Source: a virus. From it: a stretch of DNA of 39,197 nucleotides. The notes under the pieces are model-generated. The model was not told the origin of the DNA. It saw only the letters and a program-made list of their open reading frames with translations, and searched no databases. Both the position numbers and the translations under genes were made by a program. The stretch lies in IMG/VR virus record IMGVR_UViG_3300027944_000097, one strand, 5' to 3'. Of the stretch, positions 357 to 39,197 are shown piece after piece; position 1 is the stretch's first letter, and each line of letters opens with the position of its first letter.

Positions 357-416
357 TTCAACGGTGCCCCCTGCCGTCCAGGGGCAACAGCAATCAAACC
401 AAATGAGGCACAGCAC

Positions 417-761
417 ATGAGCAAAGCACGCCCCTTCATCGACACGCTACGGGACATCGAGGCCGGCGGGCTGCTGGACGAACTCACCGAGACCCAGCAC
501 AGCCTGATCGACGCCATTCGCCTGACCGGCAAAGGCGGCGAACTGACCATCAAGCTCACTTACAAGCCTGATGGCGGCGGCCAGATGACCGTGAAGGCAG
601 ACGTCAAATCCAAGGAGCCTGTCCTGTCCCGCGGCACGTCGCTGTTCTTCCTGACACCGGAAGGCAACATCACCCGCCGCGATCCACGACAACAGGAAAT
701 ACCGCTGCGCAGTGTGAGTGAAGACCTGCCGCCGGAGACGATGCGACAGGTCAGCCAATAA
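417..761 (+). CDS. Hypothetical early protein
   Basis: 114-aa ORF with a GAGG-type RBS context (gaggcacagcacATG), co-oriented with its neighbours. No motif recognised. Confidence 0.6.
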   Translation: MSKARPFIDTLRDIEAGGLLDELTETQHSLIDAIRLTGKGGELTIKLTYKPDGGGQMTVKADVKSKEPVLSRGTSLFFLTPEGNITRRDPRQQEIPLRSVSEDLPPETMRQVSQ

Positions 762-808
762 CCCCCACCACAAACCTCTCACCGATTTATCCCCCTGGAG
801 CACATCCA

Positions 809-1630
809 ATGCAACAAGCCATACAGCACCTGACCGCCCTGGCCCAAGCCCTCGGCAAACCGATTGATCATGAAGGCCTGGCCGCGCCAATTGCGCTGGT
901 GCCGGACGGTGTAACGCTGGAAAGCCTGGAACACTTGCTGCCCGCACCAACCCGCATCAAGCAAAAGCTGACCGTGCTCGATGCCGAGTCGTTCATCAGC
1001 TACGTAAACCGCTTTGCCACTCAAGCAACCGCGGTGTTCTGCAACGGCCCTGAAGGCCGGACTTTCTCTGCCGTCATCGACTACCACGATCCAGCCGCAC
1101 CAGCCTGGCGCGATCACGTGGCGACCTACCGCTGCCCGACCACCGTTGAGTGGGGTAACTGGAAAACCAGCGACCGCAAGCGCATGGACCAAGCCAGCTT
1201 CGCCGAATTCATCGAAGACAACGTGAAGGACATCACCCACCACCCCGAAAACGACAACACGCCAAGCGCTGCCGACATGCTGGAAATCAGCCGGACACTG
1301 GAAGCCAAGAAGAACATCACTTTCCGCCAGGGTACCCGCCTCGACAACGGCCAGGTGCAACTGACCTACAACGAGGAAATCGACGGGCGCGCCGGCGAGA
1401 CCGGGCAGCTGCGCATCCCCGAAGAGTTTTACATCGCGCTCAAGCCTTTCCTTGGCGGTGACACGTTCTGCGTGCCGGCCCGATTCCGCTACCGCATCCA
1501 AGAAGGCCGCCTGCAAATGTGGTTCGAACTGGTGCGCCCGGACAAGGTACTGGAAGAAGCCTACAACGCGGTGCGCAACAAGATTCTGGATGCCATCAAC
1601 GACGTGCCGCTCTACGAAGCCACGTTCTAA
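809..1630 (+). CDS. DUF2303 (YfdQ-like) family protein
   Basis: 273 aa. Segments such as DAESFISYVNRFA..AVFC and LEISRTLEAKKNITFRQGTRLDNGQVQLTYNEE..G..GQL.IPEEF resemble YfdQ/DUF2303 prophage proteins as I recall them. Confidence 0.6.
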   Translation: MQQAIQHLTALAQALGKPIDHEGLAAPIALVPDGVTLESLEHLLPAPTRIKQKLTVLDAESFISYVNRFATQATAVFCNGPEGRTFSAVIDYHDPAAPAWRDHVATYRCPTTVEWGNWKTSDRKRMDQASFAEFIEDNVKDITHHPENDNTPSAADMLEISRTLEAKKNITFRQGTRLDNGQVQLTYNEEIDGRAGETGQLRIPEEFYIALKPFLGGDTFCVPARFRYRIQEGRLQMWFELVRPDKVLEEAYNAVRNKILDAINDVPLYEATF

Positions 1631-1647: not shown

Positions 1648-1686
1648 CCCGTCGCCGACCTCTCACCAAAGAATCCGGGCGGCGGG
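1648..1686 (+). promoter_or_regulatory. Hairpin with the conserved loop motif CCTCTCACCAAAGAATCC inside the plus-strand early operon
   Basis: cccgtcgcc (1648-1656) pairs with ggcggcggg (1678-1686) over 9 bp, including one G-U pair. The motif occupies 1659-1676 and is identical over 18 nt to the copy downstream of cro. Confidence 0.5.
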
Positions 1687-1708
1687 CTCTAATCGAGGCA
1701 TACAGCAC

Positions 1709-2359
1709 ATGCACGCACAAAACACGATCATCTTCATAGGCTTGGCTTTCGGCTTGATCCTTCTGGGATATTACATCCGCAAGCTCATCCTCCAGGCGCT
1801 GGCACGCAGCTACAACGCGGGCTTAAACGAGCGCAACGGCCTGCACAGCCAACGCATTGCAGCGCTTAACACCGACCTCACAACCATCACAAAACTTCGC
1901 AATCAGGAAGCCCAGCAACTGGCAGACCTGCGCTTGCAAATGCATGGCATCAAGACAACCCCGTTTACCTCAACCGATTACCGGAACCTCACCGAAATCA
2001 CCCAGTTCCTGGCGCTGGCGCTCCAGACCTGGAAAGCGCTGAAAGGCACCGAAGCTAGCCAAGCGAGAGCAGAACAGCTGATCAAGATCGCCCGTGCCAT
2101 GGCGTATCGAGTTTTTCACATTGTGGAGACGGCCGGCAGCCTCAACAACCAGCCGCTGGATACTCAGCTGATCGATTGGCTCGATCAAAGCGGCACCTTC
2201 CACGCTGAGCCCAAGTTGAGTTCAATCAGTTTCCCCCACGGAGCCGAAACCGAGGGATATCCGCATTTACGTGATGCGTTGCGCGAAGCCTACGAACTGG
2301 ATCTCCGCCGGCGTACGCTGGGGCTGCCCGCCGGTAGAGCAGCCGGAGCTGCAGCATGA
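1709..2359 (+). CDS. Membrane-anchored coiled-coil protein, unknown function
   Basis: 216 aa. N-terminal hydrophobic helix (IIFIGLAFGLILLGYYI) followed by a helical/coiled region. Its stop overlaps the next start (ATGA). Confidence 0.55.
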   Translation: MHAQNTIIFIGLAFGLILLGYYIRKLILQALARSYNAGLNERNGLHSQRIAALNTDLTTITKLRNQEAQQLADLRLQMHGIKTTPFTSTDYRNLTEITQFLALALQTWKALKGTEASQARAEQLIKIARAMAYRVFHIVETAGSLNNQPLDTQLIDWLDQSGTFHAEPKLSSISFPHGAETEGYPHLRDALREAYELDLRRRTLGLPAGRAAGAAA

Positions 2360-32230: not shown

Positions 32231-32719
32231 CTAGCAAGTCCTGACCCGCGCAACGCTGGAAGCCCTCGTAAGATCAGTCTCCGCCGACTTCAAGCGCCGG
32301 TTCCGTGCCCGCGGCGGCGCACTTCGCGCAGTCAGGATCACCAGAACCTGCTGATGCAGGGCGTGAACCCAGTTTCGATACGTCCGATCCGCATCCTCGC
32401 CCAGGCCCAACAGTGGCAACTGAGATCGGACCGACCAGGCCGGGCGAGGCAGGTAACGATTACGAGCAAGGACAACAAGCAGTGCTCCCTTCTCCGATTG
32501 GCGCTCAAGTTGTGCCAGGGCGGCGGCGACTTCAAGCGCCGCGTGGTCCATTCCTCTCCCAGACGCCATCAGCAAATCGCGAGATCCCGGGGTGGCACGC
32601 GGGGCACAGCCGCCCCACTCCATGATCGTTGCCATCGGGCTACCCAGCCCGCCACCTTCACCTACCTGATTGCATTGGTTGCCCCAATGCAGCAGCAGAT
32701 CTTCGACTCCCTCAATCAT
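32231..32719 (-). CDS. Antitermination protein Q-like late regulator
   Basis: 162 aa. The N-terminus LLHWGNQ...MEWGG and the central EVAAALAQL.....ALLVVLARNRYL resemble Phage_antitermQ proteins as I recall them (LERWGAW.., ..LLVDYYV..). The position is directly upstream of a leader-plus-terminator and the late genes. Confidence 0.5.
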   Translation of the reverse strand: MIEGVEDLLLHWGNQCNQVGEGGGLGSPMATIMEWGGCAPRATPGSRDLLMASGRGMDHAALEVAAALAQLERQSEKGALLVVLARNRYLPRPAWSVRSQLPLLGLGEDADRTYRNWVHALHQQVLVILTARSAPPRARNRRLKSAETDLTRASSVARVRTC

Positions 32720-33044: not shown

Positions 33045-35741
33045 TCATGCTGCAGCTGCCTTGATGTGGTCCCAGTTGTCGACGTTCCAGCCCGCCAGGC
33101 GCGCAGCGGCCCGCCAAGCAACCACCGCCTTGCCCAGATCGGCCGAACTGAGTGATGGGGGCTGGGAAGCCTGCTCATCGCGAGGAAAGAAGAACGCCCC
33201 AAACTTGCGATTACTGCCATCGGTCCAGGGTATGGCGCGAGTCTTGTCTACCTCCGAACTGATGAACAATGAAAACTTCGTCTGGCTCATCACATGCTCT
33301 TTGTTGCGATGGCACCACTCCAGGAACATCGCGTAGAGGTCTGTCGACAAACAGGCGCCCCACATATCGCGTCCCAGCTCGCCGTATTGCCATAGGAACA
33401 GGAACGTTTGCCAACTCGCCCGACTCAGTGCCACCAACCGCTCTCGCGCATCGGTGCTCGGCGGTCGTGTTCGCTGATCGAAGTCGCCCAGGTCAATGGA
33501 CAACAACCACGCATACAGCGCCGCAACACCACCGTTCGCCAGCTCTCTGCCGATAGCCTTCTGACGGTCTACCGGTAGCGTCTCCATGGGCCACAGCACC
33601 AGCATCCGGCGGTCGCTCGGGGCAATCGGCCACGGCATAATCTCGTTGCTCAGGAACACGGCGTTCATGTGGTTGGCTTCCTCCCAACCGTTGATGAACT
33701 TCGACTCCATGCGTACCGTCTTGCCCGTGACCAGATGCTTGATCTTCCCCACCTGGTTGTAACGCTGGTCACGACTCACGACCTCTTCGAACACCGCCCA
33801 AAGCTTGCGGCTTTGCCAGGCGTTGAAGTTGCTTTCCAGCTGCGTCTGCCCAACCGTGGCCGCGTACTGGCCGTAGAGCATCCCGAAGGCGTCAGCGAAC
33901 AACAGGCTTTTGCCGGATCCTTCCATAGTCGAATGAGCCAGCACTGCCGTGTCCATTTTTGCGCCCAGGTGCTGCAACGGGTACGCCAACCACCGTATCA
34001 ACCAAGCGCTGGATGACTGATCGTGGTTGCACAGGAAAGAAATCAGCCACCGCAGGTTTTCGCAGGCGCCGTCATCGCGGGCGGGCTCCATGGGGAGCCC
34101 GTCAAAGGTATTGATATAGACGTTGGGATCCTTGGTCATCGTCGGGTCAAATACGATGTTCTCGACGTCGACCACCCGCCGCTCCGGGCTGTTCAACCAC
34201 ATGCCGTACATGTCGCCCAAGGCCATTTTGACTGCGCCCTCAGCCACGCGCCGTTTCTTCTCGCGGTCCCAAACATCTTTGGTGCCATCGATGTAGACGT
34301 ACCGCTCAATGGGTTCAAGGTTCAGCGCACCGCCCTTCTTACCCGCCATCTTGCGGGCCTGCTCGATCTCCTTAACCTTGTCATCCGAGATCAGCTTTTT
34401 GAGCGTGTCATCCATCCACTGTTTCGCCAGCGGCTTGCCAACCCTCGCCTCAAACGCGGTTTTCTTCATCACCCGCGCCTTGTCGAGGTCCCACACGTGT
34501 GTGGTGCCTTCAACAAGCACATAACGCCTGAGCACTTGCTCATACGTCAGCTCTTCCCCCGCACCCCCGTCAGCAGCTGGAGCGGCCTCACCGGGAGCCG
34601 AGCCGGAGTCCTGCCCGCCATCATTCGAAGATGGGGCTGGGGGAAGATCGCCTGGGTCTGGCCGCGCCGAGTGCTGCATGCCCAGCATACGCGCCGCGTC
34701 CTTCACCGCTTTCGATTGGTCCCCGTCGTGCTCGAGCAAACAGAACACCTCGAACGCATCGTTCTGGTGACCGTTTGCCAACGGGTCTGCCGCATGATGC
34801 GAATACACCTTGCCGTCGTCGCTGACTGTGACGCCGGGCAGGCCCGTGCTGCTCTGGGGGTACAACCACTTGGCGCCGCGTTTGATGTAACCATGAGCGC
34901 GCAGCAGCTCTTCAACATGGTGAGACCGATTGAACTCATCAATGACGGAAGGGGGTTTGCCAGCGGCCGGTGGCGGCCGTTTTATGACTTTCGCTGGTGG
35001 TCGCTTTGGCTTTGGTGCCCACGGGCACGCCGCCTCGGCATCCCGCTTGAAGATGTCCCAGTTCTGCCAGATCGCCAACAGATCGGCAGGCAATACGGGC
35101 AAGCCCTCCGTAGCGTTCGGCGGAGTCCGCCACGCGTACGGCTTGCCGGTTCCAGGATGGATAGACGGTGGCAGAACATCCTGCACCAGGCCGGCGCGCA
35201 GTTCGAGCACGGTAAAGCGCTTGTACTGCTCCGACTCGACCTTGGCCGCCGCCTCCCCTTCAACGTCACCCGCCGCTTTTGCGGCCCTGGCCTTCGCCGT
35301 TAACGCTTTGTAGATTGTCCCGTCCGGGTCGTTTTCGTTCGGCCAGGCAAGCGAATGCCGGTTCAGCTCAACGCCTTCTGGTACTTGAAACAAGACACGA
35401 AACCGCGCCGGGTTACCGACGACAGTTGGGAACACCAACGCCATTGCATCCAGGTCCAAGCCCAACAGCTCGTACAGAACGTGTCTGGTCCATTGGACGT
35501 CATCAACATCCAACGAACAGATGCGGCTCGGCCCCAGGACGACGCCGAGGTTGTGGTGAGGGTGTGTTTGCCAGAAAGCTTCAGCAGTGTCCGCCGAAGT
35601 TAAGTAACCACCCGGCTTGTTCCAGCCCATGCCCTTCGGCGCTTTTTCACCCGGCTCAATCGAGACGAGAGCCAGGCCAAAGGTTTCAATGTATCGACGC
35701 GCCCACGCCGCCGTGGGCGCTGTGTTTATCGATTCACTCAT
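33045..35741 (-). CDS. Bifunctional primase-polymerase (AEP/prim-pol N-terminal domain) fused to a D5/P4-type SF3 helicase
   Basis: 898 aa. The N-terminus has VSIEPGEKAPKG.GWNK...HNLGVVLG...SLDVDD (prim-pol DxD). The C-terminal domain has Walker A STMEGSGKSLL and downstream SF3-like motifs. Confidence 0.8.
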   Translation of the reverse strand: MSESINTAPTAAWARRYIETFGLALVSIEPGEKAPKGMGWNKPGGYLTSADTAEAFWQTHPHHNLGVVLGPSRICSLDVDDVQWTRHVLYELLGLDLDAMALVFPTVVGNPARFRVLFQVPEGVELNRHSLAWPNENDPDGTIYKALTAKARAAKAAGDVEGEAAAKVESEQYKRFTVLELRAGLVQDVLPPSIHPGTGKPYAWRTPPNATEGLPVLPADLLAIWQNWDIFKRDAEAACPWAPKPKRPPAKVIKRPPPAAGKPPSVIDEFNRSHHVEELLRAHGYIKRGAKWLYPQSSTGLPGVTVSDDGKVYSHHAADPLANGHQNDAFEVFCLLEHDGDQSKAVKDAARMLGMQHSARPDPGDLPPAPSSNDGGQDSGSAPGEAAPAADGGAGEELTYEQVLRRYVLVEGTTHVWDLDKARVMKKTAFEARVGKPLAKQWMDDTLKKLISDDKVKEIEQARKMAGKKGGALNLEPIERYVYIDGTKDVWDREKKRRVAEGAVKMALGDMYGMWLNSPERRVVDVENIVFDPTMTKDPNVYINTFDGLPMEPARDDGACENLRWLISFLCNHDQSSSAWLIRWLAYPLQHLGAKMDTAVLAHSTMEGSGKSLLFADAFGMLYGQYAATVGQTQLESNFNAWQSRKLWAVFEEVVSRDQRYNQVGKIKHLVTGKTVRMESKFINGWEEANHMNAVFLSNEIMPWPIAPSDRRMLVLWPMETLPVDRQKAIGRELANGGVAALYAWLLSIDLGDFDQRTRPPSTDARERLVALSRASWQTFLFLWQYGELGRDMWGACLSTDLYAMFLEWCHRNKEHVMSQTKFSLFISSEVDKTRAIPWTDGSNRKFGAFFFPRDEQASQPPSLSSADLGKAVVAWRAAARLAGWNVDNWDHIKAAAA

Positions 35742-35944: not shown

Positions 35945-36425
35945 TTTCGCGATCCTCCATCGCCTGGCGCGCACCAGCCATAATGCCCAGCACCGCACGA
36001 ATCACATCGATGCCATGCTTTTCCAGCAGCGCGACTTCGTGGGGCTCCCACACGTTGTCGGCGGCACCTTCGTGCATGCTCGATACAAACTCACCGGTTT
36101 CATGCAACAAGCGCCCTACCGACTTCAACGCCTCTTTAGTGGGCGCTGCGGGCTCTGGCTTGTACCAGACCATCCCCGCAGGCCTCATCAGCGCATCCAG
36201 CAGCGCGGGATTACAGGTCAGCCGAATGACCTCTTCCAGTTCATCCGGATCGAGCCAGCGGCGTTCTTCATCGTGTTTGAGTTTCTTCTGAAGGGTGTCG
36301 TAATCGATCACCATGTCCAGGGCCAGAGCCGTGACGCCACCCTTGTAATCGTGGCCGGCCCGATACAGCGCTTTGCGAAGCGAAAGAACCGGCCCAAAGG
36401 CCGGTGAATGGTTCGAAGTGCTCAT
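35937..36425 (-). CDS. Phage regulatory protein CII (CP76/186-CII-like)
   Basis: 162 aa. The segment DYDTLQKKLKHDEERRWLDPDELEEVIRLTCNPALLDAL parallels the 186 CII segment TLRNKLNPEQPHQFTPPELWLLTDLTEDSTLVDGF, from memory. The gene lies second in the PR-like operon after cro. Confidence 0.5.
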   Translation of the reverse strand: MSTSNHSPAFGPVLSLRKALYRAGHDYKGGVTALALDMVIDYDTLQKKLKHDEERRWLDPDELEEVIRLTCNPALLDALMRPAGMVWYKPEPAAPTKEALKSVGRLLHETGEFVSSMHEGAADNVWEPHEVALLEKHGIDVIRAVLGIMAGARQAMEDRENG

Positions 36426-36518
36426 AACCGTAAATTCCCCATTTACGGCCTAGCCTTAGGAACGGGCACGCCCTATCCTACGACCACGACCGATATGCAT
36501 GTGCTGTGTGTCGTCGTA

Positions 36519-36559
36519 GCCGGGCTGGGGGATTCTTTGGTGAGAGGCCCCAGTCCGGC
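36519..36559 (-). promoter_or_regulatory. Hairpin with the conserved loop motif CCTCTCACCAAAGAATCC, between cro and the cII-like gene (nutR-like position)
   Basis: On the minus strand, gccggactgggg pairs with ccccagcccggc (11 of 12 bp) around a 17-nt loop. The loop holds the motif, which is the reverse complement of 36530-36547. Confidence 0.5.
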
Positions 36560-36563
36560 ACCC

Positions 36564-36773
36564 TTACGCTGCCATTTGTTTTCGGCGGCTACCTACCGGA
36601 CGGATCTCAACGCCAGATAGCTTCCCATCGGCGTCTTTGATCACGCGGATATCTCGACCACTGAGGATCATTTGAGAAACCGCACTTTGGGTCACGCCCA
36701 GGAGCGCCGCCATTTCGAGCTGACTCCTATCCTTTGCGAACTCACGCAAAGGCACTCCAAATTCAACTGTCAT
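36564..36773 (-). CDS. cro: Cro-like HTH repressor
   Basis: 69 aa from the ATG at 36773, which has AGGA 8 nt upstream. The HTH is QLEMAALLGVTQSAVSQMILSG. The gene is divergent from the CI-like gene. Confidence 0.75.
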   Translation of the reverse strand: MTVEFGVPLREFAKDRSQLEMAALLGVTQSAVSQMILSGRDIRVIKDADGKLSGVEIRPVGSRRKQMAA

Positions 36774-36804
36774 TCTCAATTCCTCGGAACGGATGCAGAG
36801 CCAA

Positions 36805-36833: not shown

Positions 36834-36889
36834 GAAAAAACAACCGCTACTCTTTGGGCAGCATAAGTGATGCTTATAGAATTGCTGCC

Positions 36890-37612
36890 ATGACAAAAAA
36901 GCCGACCTACATCGCCGAAGAAGCCGCCCGCCTCAAAGGCATTTACAAAACTCGCAAATCGGAAGACCCGAGCCTGAATCAGGACAAGGTCGCCGAAGCA
37001 TGCGGCTGGTCAGGCCAAAGTGCCGTAAGTCAATACATGACAGGGAAGATCGCCCTGAACCTACCTGCGTTATTAAGCCTGAGTCGCGCCCTTCGTTTCG
37101 CGCCCGAGAGCGTCAGCCCTCGCCTCGCGGAAACGATGGCTCTGGCAAATAATGTTTCGGCATCGAACGCCCCGTCACAAGGGGACGTCTACCGAAACAC
37201 CACGGAGATGGGATCGGCGGGGAGGCTGTTACCTGTGATTGGATATATGAAAGCGGCTGCTTACCATGCAGGACGCGGGGACTTTGAGCCCGGTGACGCT
37301 CAAGAATGGGTCGAAGCTGGGGGGCCAGCAGGACCACGCGCGTTTATCCTACGGGTCGAAGGCAGAAGCATGGAACCGGACTTCATGCCAGGGGACAAGG
37401 TAGTAATCGACCCTGATATGGTCTGGAAATCTGGTGACTTCGTAGTTGCAAAACGTCAAAACGACAAGGCCGTCACCCTTCGACAGCTCACCGAGGAAGG
37501 GGGCGATATGTTTCTTCATGCAACCAACCCGAACTGGCCCGACCGGGTCATTAAGATGAATGACGAATGGGTCGTATACGGTAGAGCACGACGGAAAATC
37601 GTCGATCTGTGA
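36890..37612 (+). CDS. cI: CI-like repressor: XRE-type HTH plus S24 (LexA-like) autopeptidase domain
   Basis: HTH: QDKVAEACGWSGQSAVSQYMTGK. Ala-Gly candidate cleavage site: YHAGRG. S24 serine: VEGRSMEPDF. Lysine: FVVAKRQ. ATG at 36890 is preferred over the track's TTG at 36854. Confidence 0.85.
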   Translation: MTKKPTYIAEEAARLKGIYKTRKSEDPSLNQDKVAEACGWSGQSAVSQYMTGKIALNLPALLSLSRALRFAPESVSPRLAETMALANNVSASNAPSQGDVYRNTTEMGSAGRLLPVIGYMKAAAYHAGRGDFEPGDAQEWVEAGGPAGPRAFILRVEGRSMEPDFMPGDKVVIDPDMVWKSGDFVVAKRQNDKAVTLRQLTEEGGDMFLHATNPNWPDRVIKMNDEWVVYGRARRKIVDL

Positions 37613-37699: not shown

Positions 37700-37728
37700 T
37701 TGACTTAAGAAACAACGAATACTAATTT
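37700..37728 (+). promoter_or_regulatory. Candidate PL-like early promoter (TTGACT - 17 nt - TAATTT)
   Basis: -35 at 37700-37705 and -10 at 37723-37728, located between the cI terminator and the first plus-strand early ORF. Confidence 0.5.
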
Positions 37729-37729
37729 T

Positions 37730-37762
37730 GTCTCGTATCCCTCTCACCAAAGAGTACGAGAC
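37730..37762 (+). promoter_or_regulatory. Inverted repeat/hairpin carrying CCTCTCACCAAAGA, abutting the ATG of the first early gene (nutL-like or operator position)
   Basis: gtctcgta (37730-37737) pairs with tacgagac (37755-37762). The motif lies in the loop at 37740-37753. The ATG is at 37763. Confidence 0.5.
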
Positions 37763-37963
37763 ATGCAGACAACACAGCACAGCCCCACCCGCTGCCCGGT
37801 CTATCTGCACCCGGCAGCCTGCACCAGCCCGAAGGCCGTTGAAGCGATCCAGAATCGCACCGGCCTGCTGGTGATCGTCAACACTGGCCGCGTCGCCCCC
37901 ACCCTTCCCGCTCGCGCTGTAAAGGCAGATGACTTGGGCCCATGGGGAGGTGATGCAGCATGA
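37763..37963 (+). CDS. Hypothetical small early protein
   Basis: 66 aa. It is the first ORF after the PL-like promoter, and its stop overlaps the next start (gcagcATGA). Confidence 0.45.
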   Translation: MQTTQHSPTRCPVYLHPAACTSPKAVEAIQNRTGLLVIVNTGRVAPTLPARAVKADDLGPWGGDAA

Positions 37964-38820: not shown

Positions 38821-39191
38821 AACCCAACGCCATCAATTCCGCTGTAGGCGCCCTGAAGCTGGTGCCCATGTACCTCAATCACCCGACGGTGATCAGCCGA
38901 GCCACGCTTATCGGCGCCTCTGCCGAAGCTGTTCAATTGCTGGAGGCCTTGCCCTGCGTCTCTGTTGAACTGGCGGAAGTGTTCCGCTGTGTCGACGCGG
39001 TGATCGGTGATGGCCATGTTGCCTACGTTACCCCCGTCAACTGCCCGGAATACCCCTATGGCGCCGTCGTTTCAGACGCCAAGGGCAACGTCCTGGCAGC
39101 GGCCAAGGGCAAGAGCAAAGAAGGTCTCGCCGAACTGATCCGCCTCAAGCTGGTGCCCCTGATGGAGGGGCATGGGGAGGATTCCGCGTGA
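38817..39191 (+). CDS. Hypothetical early protein (spans the circular junction repeat)
   Basis: 124 aa from the ATG at 38817, which overlaps the upstream stop (gcagcATGA). Its 3' end lies in the 123-bp terminal redundancy, and its stop (39189-39191) overlaps the GTG start of the PrtN-like gene, which begins at 39188 in the end copy of the repeat (114 in the start copy), by 4 nt (GTGA). Confidence 0.5.
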   Translation: MKPNAINSAVGALKLVPMYLNHPTVISRATLIGASAEAVQLLEALPCVSVELAEVFRCVDAVIGDGHVAYVTPVNCPEYPYGAVVSDAKGNVLAAAKGKSKEGLAELIRLKLVPLMEGHGEDSA

Positions 39192-39197
39192 GCACCA
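39075..39197 (+). repeat. Terminal redundancy, copy 2 (identical to 1-123)
   Basis: Same 123 nt as the window start. Consistent with a circular assembly overlap or a circularly permuted unit of 39,074 bp. Confidence 0.95.

Follow-up and report, generated by a model that had tools for sequence, protein, structure and literature searches.

The stretch of viral DNA analyzed here (the window, 39,197 nt) carries a 14-mer, CCTCTCACCAAAGA, in three exact copies, at 1659-1672 (+), 36534-36547 (-) and 37740-37753 (+). All three follow the direction of local transcription, each within a sense-strand hairpin. As the initial annotation had described, one copy (b) is flanked by genes for Cro and a CP76-type CII, another (c) stands behind a PL-like promoter, and the third (a) lies downstream of a DUF2303 gene. 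With up to two mismatches allowed, 0.26 matches to the 14-mer are expected per window by chance, and three were reached in 1 of 100 shuffles. The three hairpins recognized at the outset are joined by a linear fourth copy and a decayed fifth, and a second, shorter box recurs near them:

392-419 (+), fifth copy, decayed (..AUCAAACCAAAUGAGG; copy at about 392-408), continuing into a Shine-Dalgarno sequence, CACAGCAC, and the ATG at 417
775-784 (+), fourth copy, linear, CCUCUCACCG (also given as CCTCTCACCG), without a hairpin, 25 nt 5' of the DUF2303 ATG
1648-1686 (+), hairpin (a), 3' of the DUF2303 stop codon, motif in the loop, covariance-model score 23.9 bits
36519-36559 (-), R hairpin (b), between the cro stop codon and cII, stem GCCGGACUGGGG / CCCCAGCCCGGC, covariance-model score 38.7 bits
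37729-37763 (+), L hairpin (c) (core 37730-37762), at the 5' end of the PL transcript, motif in the loop
36500-36507 (-), second box ACAGCACA, downstream of the R hairpin
1702-1709 (+), 37774-37781 (+) and 410-417 (+), further copies of the second box, beside starts of early genes or mini-ORFs

The hairpins have the dimensions first reported for them. Eleven of the 12 stem positions of the R hairpin are paired, with one A.C mismatch, around a 17-nt loop, CCUCUCACCAAAGAAUC; the L stem, (U)GUCUCGUA / UACGAGAC(A), has 8 bp and the (a) stem, CCCGUCGCC / GGCGGCGGG, has 9 bp, one of which is G.U. Copies (a) and (b) are indeed identical over 18 nt, CCTCTCACCAAAGAATCC. The 3' arm of the L hairpin abuts the ATG (37763) of the first PL gene, where a good Shine-Dalgarno sequence is absent, and the (a) hairpin is followed by CUCUAAUCGAGG (Shine-Dalgarno), ACAGCAC and then the ATG at 1709 of a membrane-protein gene. 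The fourth copy sits in a G-poor gap of 47 nt between phrog_204 (417-761) and DUF2303 (809-1630), and at the position of the decayed fifth copy relatives carry CUCACCAAUGAGGCACAGCACAUG, as seen in L108. In both early operons, every untranslated gap of at least 40 nt holds one of the five copies; the late genes, equipped with a terminator of their own and a candidate Q-like switch, hold none. A covariance model of the hairpin, run on the window, matched only the three hairpins. The second box, (AC)ACAGCAC(A), lies 10-20 nt 3' of each hairpin; the window has 5 matches to it versus 1.3 expected, 4 of the 5 within the early operons, and it recurs across all site classes in relatives. Rfam 15 gave no match in the window at the gathering score and only chance-level eukaryotic families at E values up to 10, and a search for tRNA and tmRNA found none.

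We retrieved the corresponding loci of relatives through their cII or DUF2303 proteins, independently of the motif, and the element was present at matching positions in nearly all of them. The cII-anchored set comprises 74 distinct cro-cII gaps with 122 motif sites. A perfect stem of at least 6 bp encloses 108 of these 122 sites, versus 4.3% of random positions, and the element exceeds chance by far. Homologous R hairpins, one to five in tandem, are found in all 74 distinct cII-anchored loci; among distinct DUF2303-anchored loci the core occupies the (a) position in 63 of 68 and the equivalent of the linear copy at 775-784 in 49 of 59. The element occurs in prophages of about 45 Pseudomonas species representatives as well as in P. 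aeruginosa phages that are currently being isolated for research, and the exact long form of the motif is almost restricted to Pseudomonas prophages. A conserved motif of 14-18 nt, as originally proposed, is exact in the window, but what is invariant across relatives is shorter, namely CCUCUCACCA among close relatives and overall a core of about 7 nt, CUCUCAC.

Loops of 8-21 nt containing this core are closed by stems of 7-12 bp that are wholly unlike between site classes. The stems were aligned by covariance model, a MAFFT alignment anchored on the loop being useless for them. Among 47 distinct sequences, 92.5% of cells pair, compared with 72% in shuffles and 40-62% in slid controls, and 6 of 7 pairs are altered on both sides. 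The suggestion that unrelated stems are under selection for pairing is thus upheld, and alignment by covariance model, a kind of model proposed earlier as a check, showed compensatory stem changes in related phages. A longer outer L stem that would sequester the ATG was rejected, covariation beyond 7 bp being weak.

The several hundred copies in relatives are all oriented along transcription. Motifs of the L, type-4, type-5 and (a) classes stand 15-50 nt 5' of a real ATG, and the A-rich tail of linear copies passes directly into a Shine-Dalgarno sequence. The (a) cassette, consisting of the hairpin, a Shine-Dalgarno sequence, ACACAGCAC and ATG, is kept ahead of differing genes. R hairpins lie 100-330 nt from cII and not beside start codons. 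The PL gaps are strongly C-rich and G-poor (C/G 1.8-5.8), and therefore unstructured, whereas the R gap has a C/G of 0.91. The positions had been compared to those of nut and put sites. Two copies do lie at such positions, but others fill every untranslated early gap, those of the PL operon beside start codons, and one copy per gap is more than a processive antiterminator would need.

Related phages carry CUCUGAC, CUCUAC or CUUACCA in their loops in place of CUCUCAC, and within each genome the variant is uniform across all 4-9 sites. CUCUGAC stands at L, type-5, type-4, (a) and five R hairpins of L351 and is shared by L359 and L353; L364 shows CUUACCA at L, at (a) and in both of its listed R hairpins, and LPPA56 shows CCUCUAC at five sites. 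CUCUCAC is found in L352, L354, L355, L356, Lodos, Meadow and Turba. The CUCUGAC and CUUACCA phages have no close relatives among deposited phages. Identity between sites extends over about 12 nt, and in the window (a) and R share 18 nt. Against a genome's own R loops the identity runs to 11.7 nt versus 11.0 nt against foreign ones, a small excess (Wilcoxon p = 1.6e-11). Loop variants do not follow the DUF2303 phylogeny, and two occur among the phages of a single host species, P. aeruginosa. Despite 94-100% identity in cII, TraR, primase, PrtN and kinase, phages LPPA56 and Meadow differ in loop variant; the segments that bear the sites are what differs between them, and the mosaic borders lie beside the sites. 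Genome-wide sharing of variants, together with the occurrence of two in P. aeruginosa phages, argues against a partner that is supplied by the host alone or acts like put, since such a pattern is not what conserved host machinery would enforce. The earlier option of a cis-acting or host-factor-dependent element is not supported. Our search of the literature returned nothing relevant on the element sequence or on nut-like elements of Pseudomonas. These observations point to the early-operon loop word as a previously undescribed, phage-specific regulatory code in a large group of Pseudomonas temperate phages. Among the options first put forward, a phage RNA-binding partner fits best.

The early genes were searched for such a partner. 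As had been remarked at the outset, no arginine-rich or N-like protein is evident among them, and they include no antiterminator identifiable by Pfam or PHROG. The product of the first PL gene (gp1, phrog_13491) is not basic (pI 8.8, 6 K+R in 66 aa) and has no PDB relative; it was rejected as the partner because it shows no partition by variant and is missing from L096 and L117, which retain all hairpins. No group-specific columns were found in cII, gp1, phrog_5689, phrog_8889, phrog_1300, phrog_204 or DUF2303, and of all conserved early proteins amenable to comparison, not one follows the loop variant. The specificity determinant may lie beyond the compared regions, in a late or virion protein or in Cro or CI. 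An arginine-rich mini-ORF after R (MHIGRGRRIG..) was also rejected as an N-like peptide, for lack of third-position bias: its substitutions, 128, 118 and 84 by codon position, bear no coding signature, and in other classes the frame differs or the ORF is absent. Most R hairpins precede an ATG, at a frequency within chance.

Complements of the motif on sense strands are no more frequent than chance in the window and occupy no conserved place in variant phages. This rules out a c4-like sense-strand regulator and means that only antisense copies of the sites could pair with them. Two kinds of mimicry were also set aside: resemblance to the 16S 3' tail (UCACCUCC in short-loop variants) was judged an accident of GGGA/UCCC closing pairs, and resemblance to the tRNA 3' end (CACCA) is absent as a conserved feature in P. 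aeruginosa phages.

Four further features flank the R and L hairpins:

36388-36405 (-), GC hairpin and U-rich tail, ACCGGCC-UUUG-GGCCGGU UCUUUCGCUU, terminator-like, in codons 7-17 of cII
36426-36518 (-), conserved cII leader with predicted alternative RNA helices
36428-36479 (+), putative CII-dependent promoter, antisense to the cII leader and reading leftward toward cI, predicted start at about 36486
37700-37728 (+), predicted PL-like promoter, read from the sequence: TTGACT (37700-37705), 17-nt spacer, TAATTT (37723-37728)

The predicted PL start (about 37735) is located within the 5' arm of the L stem, a caveat that had accompanied copy (c) from the beginning and that stands; the PL transcript would accordingly retain only about 3-5 bp of the L stem. 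The same geometry of promoter and hairpin is found in dozens of relatives with different operators. In the cII leader, CUACGACGA may pair with UCGUGGUCGUAG or, alternatively, GGUCGUGGUCGUAGGAUAGGG with CCCGUU..GGCUAGGCC, the second helix being rich in G.U pairs on the sense strand; a further hairpin, CCGUAAA-UGGGGAA-UUUACGG, contains the cII Shine-Dalgarno sequence in its loop. The candidate antisense promoter consists of an inverted repeat, CCGTAAA-n7-TTTACGG (36428-36448), followed after 25 nt by TATCCT (36474-36479). In 62 of 62 distinct leaders this -10-like hexamer, TAT[CTA][CTA]T, keeps T1, A2, T3 and T6 while positions 4-5 vary, and its spacing from the inverted repeat is constant at 25 nt. 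A consensus promoter scan gave no match at this site; we infer the promoter and its dependence on CII from the likeness to lambda PRE, which starts beside cII and transcribes antisense through cro. The hexamer could instead be kept as part of a sense-strand RNA helix. About 150 nt downstream of the R hairpin, the terminator-like hairpin in cII is conserved, with compensatory variants (CCGGCC/GGCCGG, CCGGG/CCCGG and CCGGAC/GUCCGG) that alter the encoded amino acids. No intrinsic terminator was seen in the PL operon.

Our preferred reading, to which we assign a probability of about one in three (0.35), is that the copies are RNA operator sites on early transcripts and that their phage-specific partner, which has to correspond to the loop word, is an antisense RNA from the cro-cII gap. 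Opposite-strand transcription of one or more R hairpins would begin at a leftward promoter beside the start of cII that, as with lambda PRE, probably needs CII for its activation; a transcript starting at about 36486 would comprise the complement of the R hairpin, antisense cro and then cI. Folded into hairpins, this RNA would present loops (..GGUGAGAGG..) that complement each sense copy exactly. The loops would kiss the copies of the PL transcript beside the starts of the first PL gene, phrog_204, DUF2303 and the membrane-protein gene, and the RNA would also pair along its full length with the PR transcript. The expected outcome is that early lytic messages would be blocked in translation or decay once CII fires. 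The R copies, which are tandem (1-5) and far from real start codons, would be the source of the regulator, and the PL copies its targets.

The R hairpins pair better as antisense than as sense RNA (87 A.C versus 33 G.U juxtapositions; 53 hairpins versus 20). This strand bias, in which common descent is uncorrected for, could be due in part to base composition, and the L and (a) hairpins show no such preference. Counting against the antisense model, the R hairpins are well formed and covarying on the sense strand too. The second box, ACACAGCAC, falls outside its explanation, and the spread of a new loop variant to 4-9 sites is unaccounted for by every model, this one included. More tentatively still, the loop word may define RNA "compatibility groups" among Pseudomonas lambdoid phages, enforced by a CII-switched antisense leader RNA, with the tandem cro-cII hairpins as its template, that kisses matching loops at the starts of early-left cistrons. 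There is precedent in the c4 RNA of P1/P7 and the CI RNA of P4, where loop changes of one or two bases set specificity groups and the targets change in step. If true, this would add a second, RNA-based layer to the lysis-lysogeny switch, a post-transcriptional shutdown of the lytic early program, whose specificity evolves through concerted change of one loop base.

A phage-encoded protein could instead read the loops and modify RNA polymerase as N does at boxB, letting the enzyme read through Rho-dependent sites in the gaps and through the terminator-like hairpin early in cII; we consider this rather unlikely. It would suit the nutL- and nutR-like positions of the L and R copies, the two-part signal of hairpin and linear box, the conserved terminator-like hairpin some 150 nt 3' of R, and the confinement of copies to early operons, the late genes having signals of their own. 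Hairpins with a phage-specific loop code also recall boxB, which falls into distinct classes in lambda, P22 and phi21. However, the early genes offer no arginine-rich or N-like candidate, the product of the first PL gene being non-basic, without known relatives and dispensable in L096 and L117, and no conserved early protein open to comparison follows the variant. Moreover, boxA is absent, some copies lack any hairpin, and a processive system requires one site per operon, where these phages have one per gap.

A role in translation, with the motif as operator or enhancer of early cistrons, appears doubtful in both of its versions. As an operator, the motif would bind a phage protein that represses early messages beside their start codons, like T4 RegA; as an enhancer, it would be a single-stranded, pyrimidine-rich word that recruits ribosomes to mini-ORFs and to starts with weak Shine-Dalgarno sequences and that shields the gaps from Rho. 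The distance of 15-50 nt to real ATGs in the L, type-4, type-5 and (a) classes, the linear tails that meet Shine-Dalgarno sequences, the first PL gene without a proper one, the unstructured PL gaps, the preservation of the (a) cassette before different genes and the ATG after most R hairpins are all in keeping with such a role. Yet those last ATGs are no commoner than chance, the R1 mini-ORF is non-coding, and the R hairpins lie 100-330 nt away from cII. A ribosomal partner would leave differing loop variants in one host species unexplained, and no repressor candidate follows the variant.

Improbable, too, is an action through host machinery alone, by way of put-like elements as in HK022, Rho-utilization or anti-Rho sites, or hairpins that serve as RNase entry points or stabilizers. 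The L element begins at about +1 of the PL transcript, like putL, no candidate phage protein was found, the word is C-rich with CA-rich boxes similar to rut sites, and the exact long motif is almost confined to Pseudomonas prophages. These points are outweighed by the concerted, genome-specific variants, two of them among P. aeruginosa phages, by the several copies per operon, and by the form of the element, a single short hairpin or none versus a two-stem fold of about 70 nt. The rut-site reading in particular was rejected since the PL gaps are C-rich and the R gap overall is not (C/G 0.91), and stems of 8-12 bp are below RNase III length.

Least probable is that the copies work as DNA, whether as an origin or priming signal read by the phage primase-helicase, as an operator, or as a linker for recombination where modules meet: the orientation of the copies would also suit strand-specific DNA hairpins around the immunity region, the core resembles the P4 alpha iteron, TGTTCACC, and the LPPA56/Meadow mosaic borders adjoin sites, but stems are independent of immunity type, several hundred copies all track the direction of transcription, conserved linear copies lie within single-strand-prone, G-poor RNA gaps, and linkers for exchange between phages should be universal rather than genome-specific. 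Priming, including primase recognition or ssi sites, is largely refuted, since L359 and L351 share CUCUGAC and have unrelated replicases (PriCT_2 + Toprim + VapE versus Prim-Pol + DUF5906), while the primases of LPPA56 and Meadow are 100% identical and their variants differ.

Regulation in temperate Pseudomonas phages is poorly known relative to lambda. If a short, programmable loop word does coordinate the whole set of early cistrons, compatibility between phages would have a new determinant, and the differing words of otherwise near-identical phages would help account for the borders of mosaic genomes. A protein partner, if that is what it proves to be, would supply the N or RegA analogue missing from these phages. 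Loop words could also supply compact, orthogonal RNA switches for Pseudomonas engineering.

As in the nutL/nutR and N system of lambda (and of P22 and phi21), the sites described here lie after PL and between cro and cII, combine a linear box with an RNA hairpin in which specificity resides in the loop, and have loop words that differ between phages and are consistent inside each genome. Unlike that system, they are accompanied by neither an N-like protein nor boxA (CGCUCUUA / UGCUCUUUAACA); the pattern YGCTCTTWA, with up to one mismatch, gave 14 matches versus 16.6 expected, none of them near the sites. Lambda boxB has a conserved 5-bp stem and a GNRA-like pentaloop, whereas the loops here measure 8-21 nt and the stems differ between sites. 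There are also 4-9 copies per genome, some inside the PL operon by start codons and some without a hairpin.

In HK022, putL begins at +2/+3 of the PL transcript, and put is a fold of about 70 nt with two stem-loops that acts alone in cis on the host RNA polymerase (PMC9378689). The two positions, the start at the 5' end of the PL transcript and the lack of an N-like factor are shared with our phages; the conserved unit here, in contrast, is a single hairpin or a linear word, and there are extra copies. Since put binds the host polymerase, one conserved sequence per host would be predicted for such an element, not genome-specific variants. T4 RegA offers another parallel, in that one element recurs beside many early start codons and is absent from late genes. 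RegA sites are, however, loosely conserved, AU-rich and overlap the AUG, whereas the word described here is strictly conserved, stands upstream of the start and is often displayed in a hairpin loop.

Control by antisense RNA operates in P1/P7 (c4), P4 (CI RNA) and N15-type phages, and in the copy control of ColE1 and R1 it proceeds by loop-loop kissing. In the P1/P4-type systems, as in these phages, a short loop matches several targets at ribosome-binding regions of an operon, and changes of one or two bases, concerted at all sites, found new specificity groups. The Pseudomonas phages differ in having a classical CI/Cro/CII switch as well. They differ also in the origin of the regulator, which in P1 and P4 bears the complement and comes, by processing, from the same strand; with no sense-strand complement here, the regulator would be an antisense transcript of the sites themselves.

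The window is a lambda-like temperate phage. Its ends overlap (1 to ~113 repeats ~39085-39197, ..CTGGTGCCCCTGATGGAGGGGCATGGGGAGGATTC..), so that it probably represents a complete genome, circular or terminally redundant, and the PL operon spans the junction of the two ends. The features of the early region, with the copies of the motif (a short word with the core CUCUCAC), are as follows.

Features of the early region
36854-37612, plus strand: S24-type CI and its terminator, upstream of the PL promoter
After the CI terminator, plus strand: predicted PL promoter, TTGACT-17-TAATTT
37730-37762, plus strand: hairpin of copy (c), termed L, 8 bp
37763-37963, plus strand: gp1, a 66-aa protein (phrog_13491), first after the PL promoter
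After gp1, plus strand: dNMP kinase, then phrog_5689, phrog_8889, phrog_1300 and phrog_204, PL operon
~392-408: decayed fifth copy, running into the phrog_204 Shine-Dalgarno sequence
775-784: fourth copy, CCTCTCACCG, no hairpin, 25 nt upstream of the DUF2303 start
809-1630, plus strand: DUF2303, PL operon
1648-1686, plus strand: hairpin of copy (a), 9 bp including one G.U
1709-2359, plus strand: membrane protein, then C5 methylase, excisionase and integrase
36564-36779, minus strand: Cro, PR operon
36519-36559, minus strand: hairpin of copy (b), termed R, 11 of 12 positions paired, 17-nt loop
35937-36425, minus strand: CP76-type CII, PR operon
After CII, minus strand: TraR/DksA-like protein, PR operon
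33045-35741, minus strand: Prim-Pol/DUF5906 primase-helicase, PR operon
After the primase-helicase, minus strand: two small proteins without assigned role, PR operon
32033-32014, minus strand: strong terminator after the PR operon; then holin, HNH, terminase and the remaining late genes

An ORF at 98-406 is probably spurious, the real gene being 114-356 (phrog_1300, excisionase/PrtN-like). The small conserved gp1 protein (MQTTQHSNTRCPVYLHP..AVEAIQRRTGLLVI..PFGGDAA) is also encoded in ~100 relatives and matches nothing in Pfam or PDB; in the relatives L096 and L117 it is deleted, leaving the hairpin and the five initial codons fused to the kinase gene. The terminator that ends the PR operon is intrinsic (AACCCCGC-UUCG-GCGGGGUU, then a U run); it follows phrog_4300 (32231-32719) and precedes the holin gene, immediately ahead of the lysis and late genes. 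Since this layout resembles lambda Q-PR'-tR', the 162-aa phrog_4300 protein, or the preceding 133-aa ORF, is a candidate late antiterminator.

The initial annotation had described exact copies of CCTCTCACCAAAGA in hairpin loops between DUF2303 and the membrane/methylase/integrase block (1659-1672, plus strand), between cro and cII (36534-36547, minus strand) and after PL (37740-37753, plus strand), the first two being the same over 18 nt. Sequences, placement and hairpins were all borne out, the hairpins by sequence reading and by folding; with up to 2 mismatches, 0.26 chance matches are expected in the window. Within the loop, CUCU is able to pair with AGAG on folding, which places CACCAA at the tip. 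The five places with copies are every untranslated gap of at least 40 nt in both early operons, and an unfiltered covariance-model search of the 39 kb found no further hairpins. A second box, ACAGCACA, lies 10-20 nt 3' of each hairpin or adjoins the next ATG (5 matches against 1.3 expected, 4 of the 5 in the early operons).

A scan of viral contigs with the 14-mer yielded ~45 genuine relatives, and in most of them L and R form a divergent pair ~1.2 kb apart. Independently of the motif, we retrieved 80 loci via the CII protein (74 distinct cro-cII gaps) and 80 via DUF2303. All 74 distinct gaps hold 1-3 hairpins with YCUCACC in the loop, and a perfect stem of at least 6 bp surrounds 108 of the 122 motif sites in them, versus 4.3% of random positions. 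Among distinct DUF2303-anchored cases, 49 of 59 have the linear copy upstream, and 63 of 68 have the (a) hairpin on the downstream side. The suggestion that selection acts on stem pairing, to be checked with a covariance model applied to related phages, is supported: the loop word is kept and stem changes are compensatory. In the covariation alignment (105 hits, 47 distinct), which is model-fitted and whose fit to structure favours pairing, 92.5% of cells pair versus 72.4% in shuffles (0 of 500 reach the observed value), and both sides have changed in 6 of 7 stem pairs, with slid controls at 40-62%. Independent support comes from the L, R and (a) classes, whose stems have unrelated sequences.

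The long form of the motif is almost confined to Pseudomonas: of the 68 genome loci with it, species of that genus account for ~56, and the remainder is close to the estimated chance level. Two typical members of the prophage family with C-type sites are L203, on a contig labelled Janthinobacterium sp., and L207, in a Pseudomonadota MAG. L203 has 58% G+C, as in Pseudomonas members, and could be due to transfer or to mislabelling or contamination of the assembly.

Each class of site has its own anatomy. In the L class the 5' arm starts directly 3' of the -10 hexamer and the predicted start is the C of CGUAC, as an earlier caveat on copy (c) had anticipated; the PL transcript would therefore keep ~5 bp of the stem. 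Covariation is weak outside the 7-bp CUCGUAC/GUACGAG helix, and the 3' arm stops 1-2 nt short of the first gene's ATG; this gene lacks a proper Shine-Dalgarno sequence. The R class consists of 1-5 tandem units of ~80 nt in which a hairpin is combined with a CA-rich box; the strongly conserved cII leader follows. The largest array seen, in L351 (5916-6160, minus strand), has five hairpins in one cro-cII gap, with CUCUGAC in every loop and every stem different. A small Arg-rich ORF downstream of the R hairpin is non-coding: substitutions at its three codon positions number 128, 118 and 84, and other classes have other frames. In the (a) class a conserved cassette (hairpin, GGGCUCUAaCGAGG, ACACAGCAC, AUG) precedes a gene that varies among phages. 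Linear copies lie in G-poor gaps (C/G ratios 1.8-5.8), and their A-rich tail runs into the following Shine-Dalgarno sequence.

More distant relatives, fetched with 10-kb flanks, and P. aeruginosa phages each carry one core variant at every copy, including the type-4 and type-5 copies that precede start codons within the PL operon.

Core variant by genome
L351: CUCUGAC at L, type-5, type-4, (a) and five R hairpins
L359, L353: CUCUGAC at all sites seen
L364: CUUACCA at L, (a) and two R hairpins
L352, L354, L355, L356: CUCUCAC at all sites seen
LPPA56 (P. aeruginosa phage): CCUCUAC at all five sites
Lodos, Meadow, Turba (P. aeruginosa phages): CUCUCAC at all sites

The variant does not follow DUF2303 phylogeny: L351 and L352 are 93% identical but differ in variant, whereas L359 and L351 share one at only 70% identity. 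Different words within one host species, P. aeruginosa, cannot be explained by a conserved host machine (polymerase, ribosome, Rho, Nus factors) and contradict the host-factor dependence that the initial annotation had allowed for. Gene conversion between unrelated stems over a stretch of 7 nt is improbable. It follows that the copies must match either a specific partner belonging to the phage or one another.

No alignment column in cII, gp1, phrog_5689, phrog_8889, phrog_1300, phrog_204 or DUF2303 separates CUCUGAC from CUCUCAC phages. Between LPPA56 and Meadow, cII, TraR, primase, PrtN-like protein, kinase and neighbouring genes are 94-100% identical despite the different variants; the differences are the immunity module (gp1 5' end, L, cI, cro, R) and a DUF2303-like module, the very segments carrying the sites. 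These two separate blocks have their borders within the gp1 5' end, at ACGACGACACAGCAC after R and at ACACAGCACATG after (a), so that the sites coincide with mosaic junctions. As a partner, gp1 was rejected, as it shows no partition by variant and is missing from L096 and L117, which retain all hairpins. CI and Cro are unlikely because one variant is common to many unrelated immunity types. Recognition by the primase-helicase, considered by analogy with P4 iterons and RSF1010 ssi sites, fails because unrelated replicases share one variant (PriCT_2/Toprim/VapE in L359, Prim-Pol in L351). The complement of the motif is on no sense strand of the window or the variant phages. After these comparisons of early proteins, replicases and sense strands, the option left is that the copies match one another via an antisense transcript.

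R hairpins contain 87 A.C versus 33 G.U juxtapositions, and 53 versus 20 pair better antisense, counts uncorrected for shared ancestry; L and (a) hairpins are neutral in this respect. PL copies adjoin start codons, while R copies do not and are tandemly amplified. Copy-to-copy identity is ~12 nt, slightly longer with the genome's own R loops. On its antisense strand the cII leader has an inverted repeat, CCGTAAA-n7-TTTACGG, with a hexamer exactly 25 nt beyond; T1, A2, T3 and T6 are kept in 62 of 62 leaders and positions 4-5 vary, which is, to judge from the sequence, the pattern of a -10 element. In lambda, PRE gives a CII-dependent transcript and offers an analogy for an antisense run toward cI. 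On these grounds we propose, with a probability of about 0.35, that a CII-triggered antisense transcript shuts down early lytic expression. Like that from PRE, it would start on the plus strand, near 36486 in the window, just before the complement of the R hairpin, and run through anti-R and anti-cro into cI; its loops would kiss the PL copies, it would pair with the PR message, and early lytic expression would cease when CII acts. The hairpins, where they lie, the loop code and the exclusions above are results; promoter, pairing and shutdown are inferred.

The cII leader itself (36426-36518, minus strand) is conserved as far as the P. aeruginosa phages LPPA56, Meadow, Presto, Lodos and Turba. 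Its RNA is predicted to form alternative helices, GGUCGUGGUCGUAG pairing with upstream CUACGACGA or downstream CUAUGGCUAGACC, which may amount to a switch. A CCGUAAA..UUUACGG hairpin is predicted to hold the cII Shine-Dalgarno sequence in its loop; it has a compensated form, CCGUUAA..UUAACGG, in distant relatives. Within cII codons 7-17, a GC hairpin (36388-36405, minus strand) followed by UCUUUCGCUU is conserved in relatives; its compensatory stems (CCGGCC/GGCCGG, CCGGG/CCCGG, CCGGAC/GUCCGG) change the encoded amino acids, and it looks like an attenuator or tR1 analogue.

This terminator-like hairpin in the first 50 nt of cII, together with the positions of the sites and the loop code, would fit a phage RNA-binding protein acting like N; such a protein has no candidate and would not need a site in every gap, and we regard it as unlikely. 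A translational operator or enhancer would account for the association with start codons but not for the R copies, and the loop code is at odds with a ribosomal partner, which makes it somewhat harder still to credit. Host-only mechanisms (put-like action, rut or anti-Rho elements, RNase sites) are contradicted by the loop code and seem improbable. Roles at the DNA level are largely excluded and very improbable.

We rate the element as a group of cis RNA operators carried by early phage transcripts. Rfam has no family matching the hairpin, and the motif sequence is absent from the literature searched. The element is closest to nut sites in position and in its phage-specific loop, and closest to the targets of P1/P7 c4 or P4 CI in its need for one short word common to several sites. 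It is nevertheless outside these families and that of put: it lacks the boxA, boxB and N of lambda nut, the put fold, and the sense-strand regulator of c4 and P4 CI. Its unusual features are the concerted single-base loop code and the possible use of the sites as templates for their own regulator.
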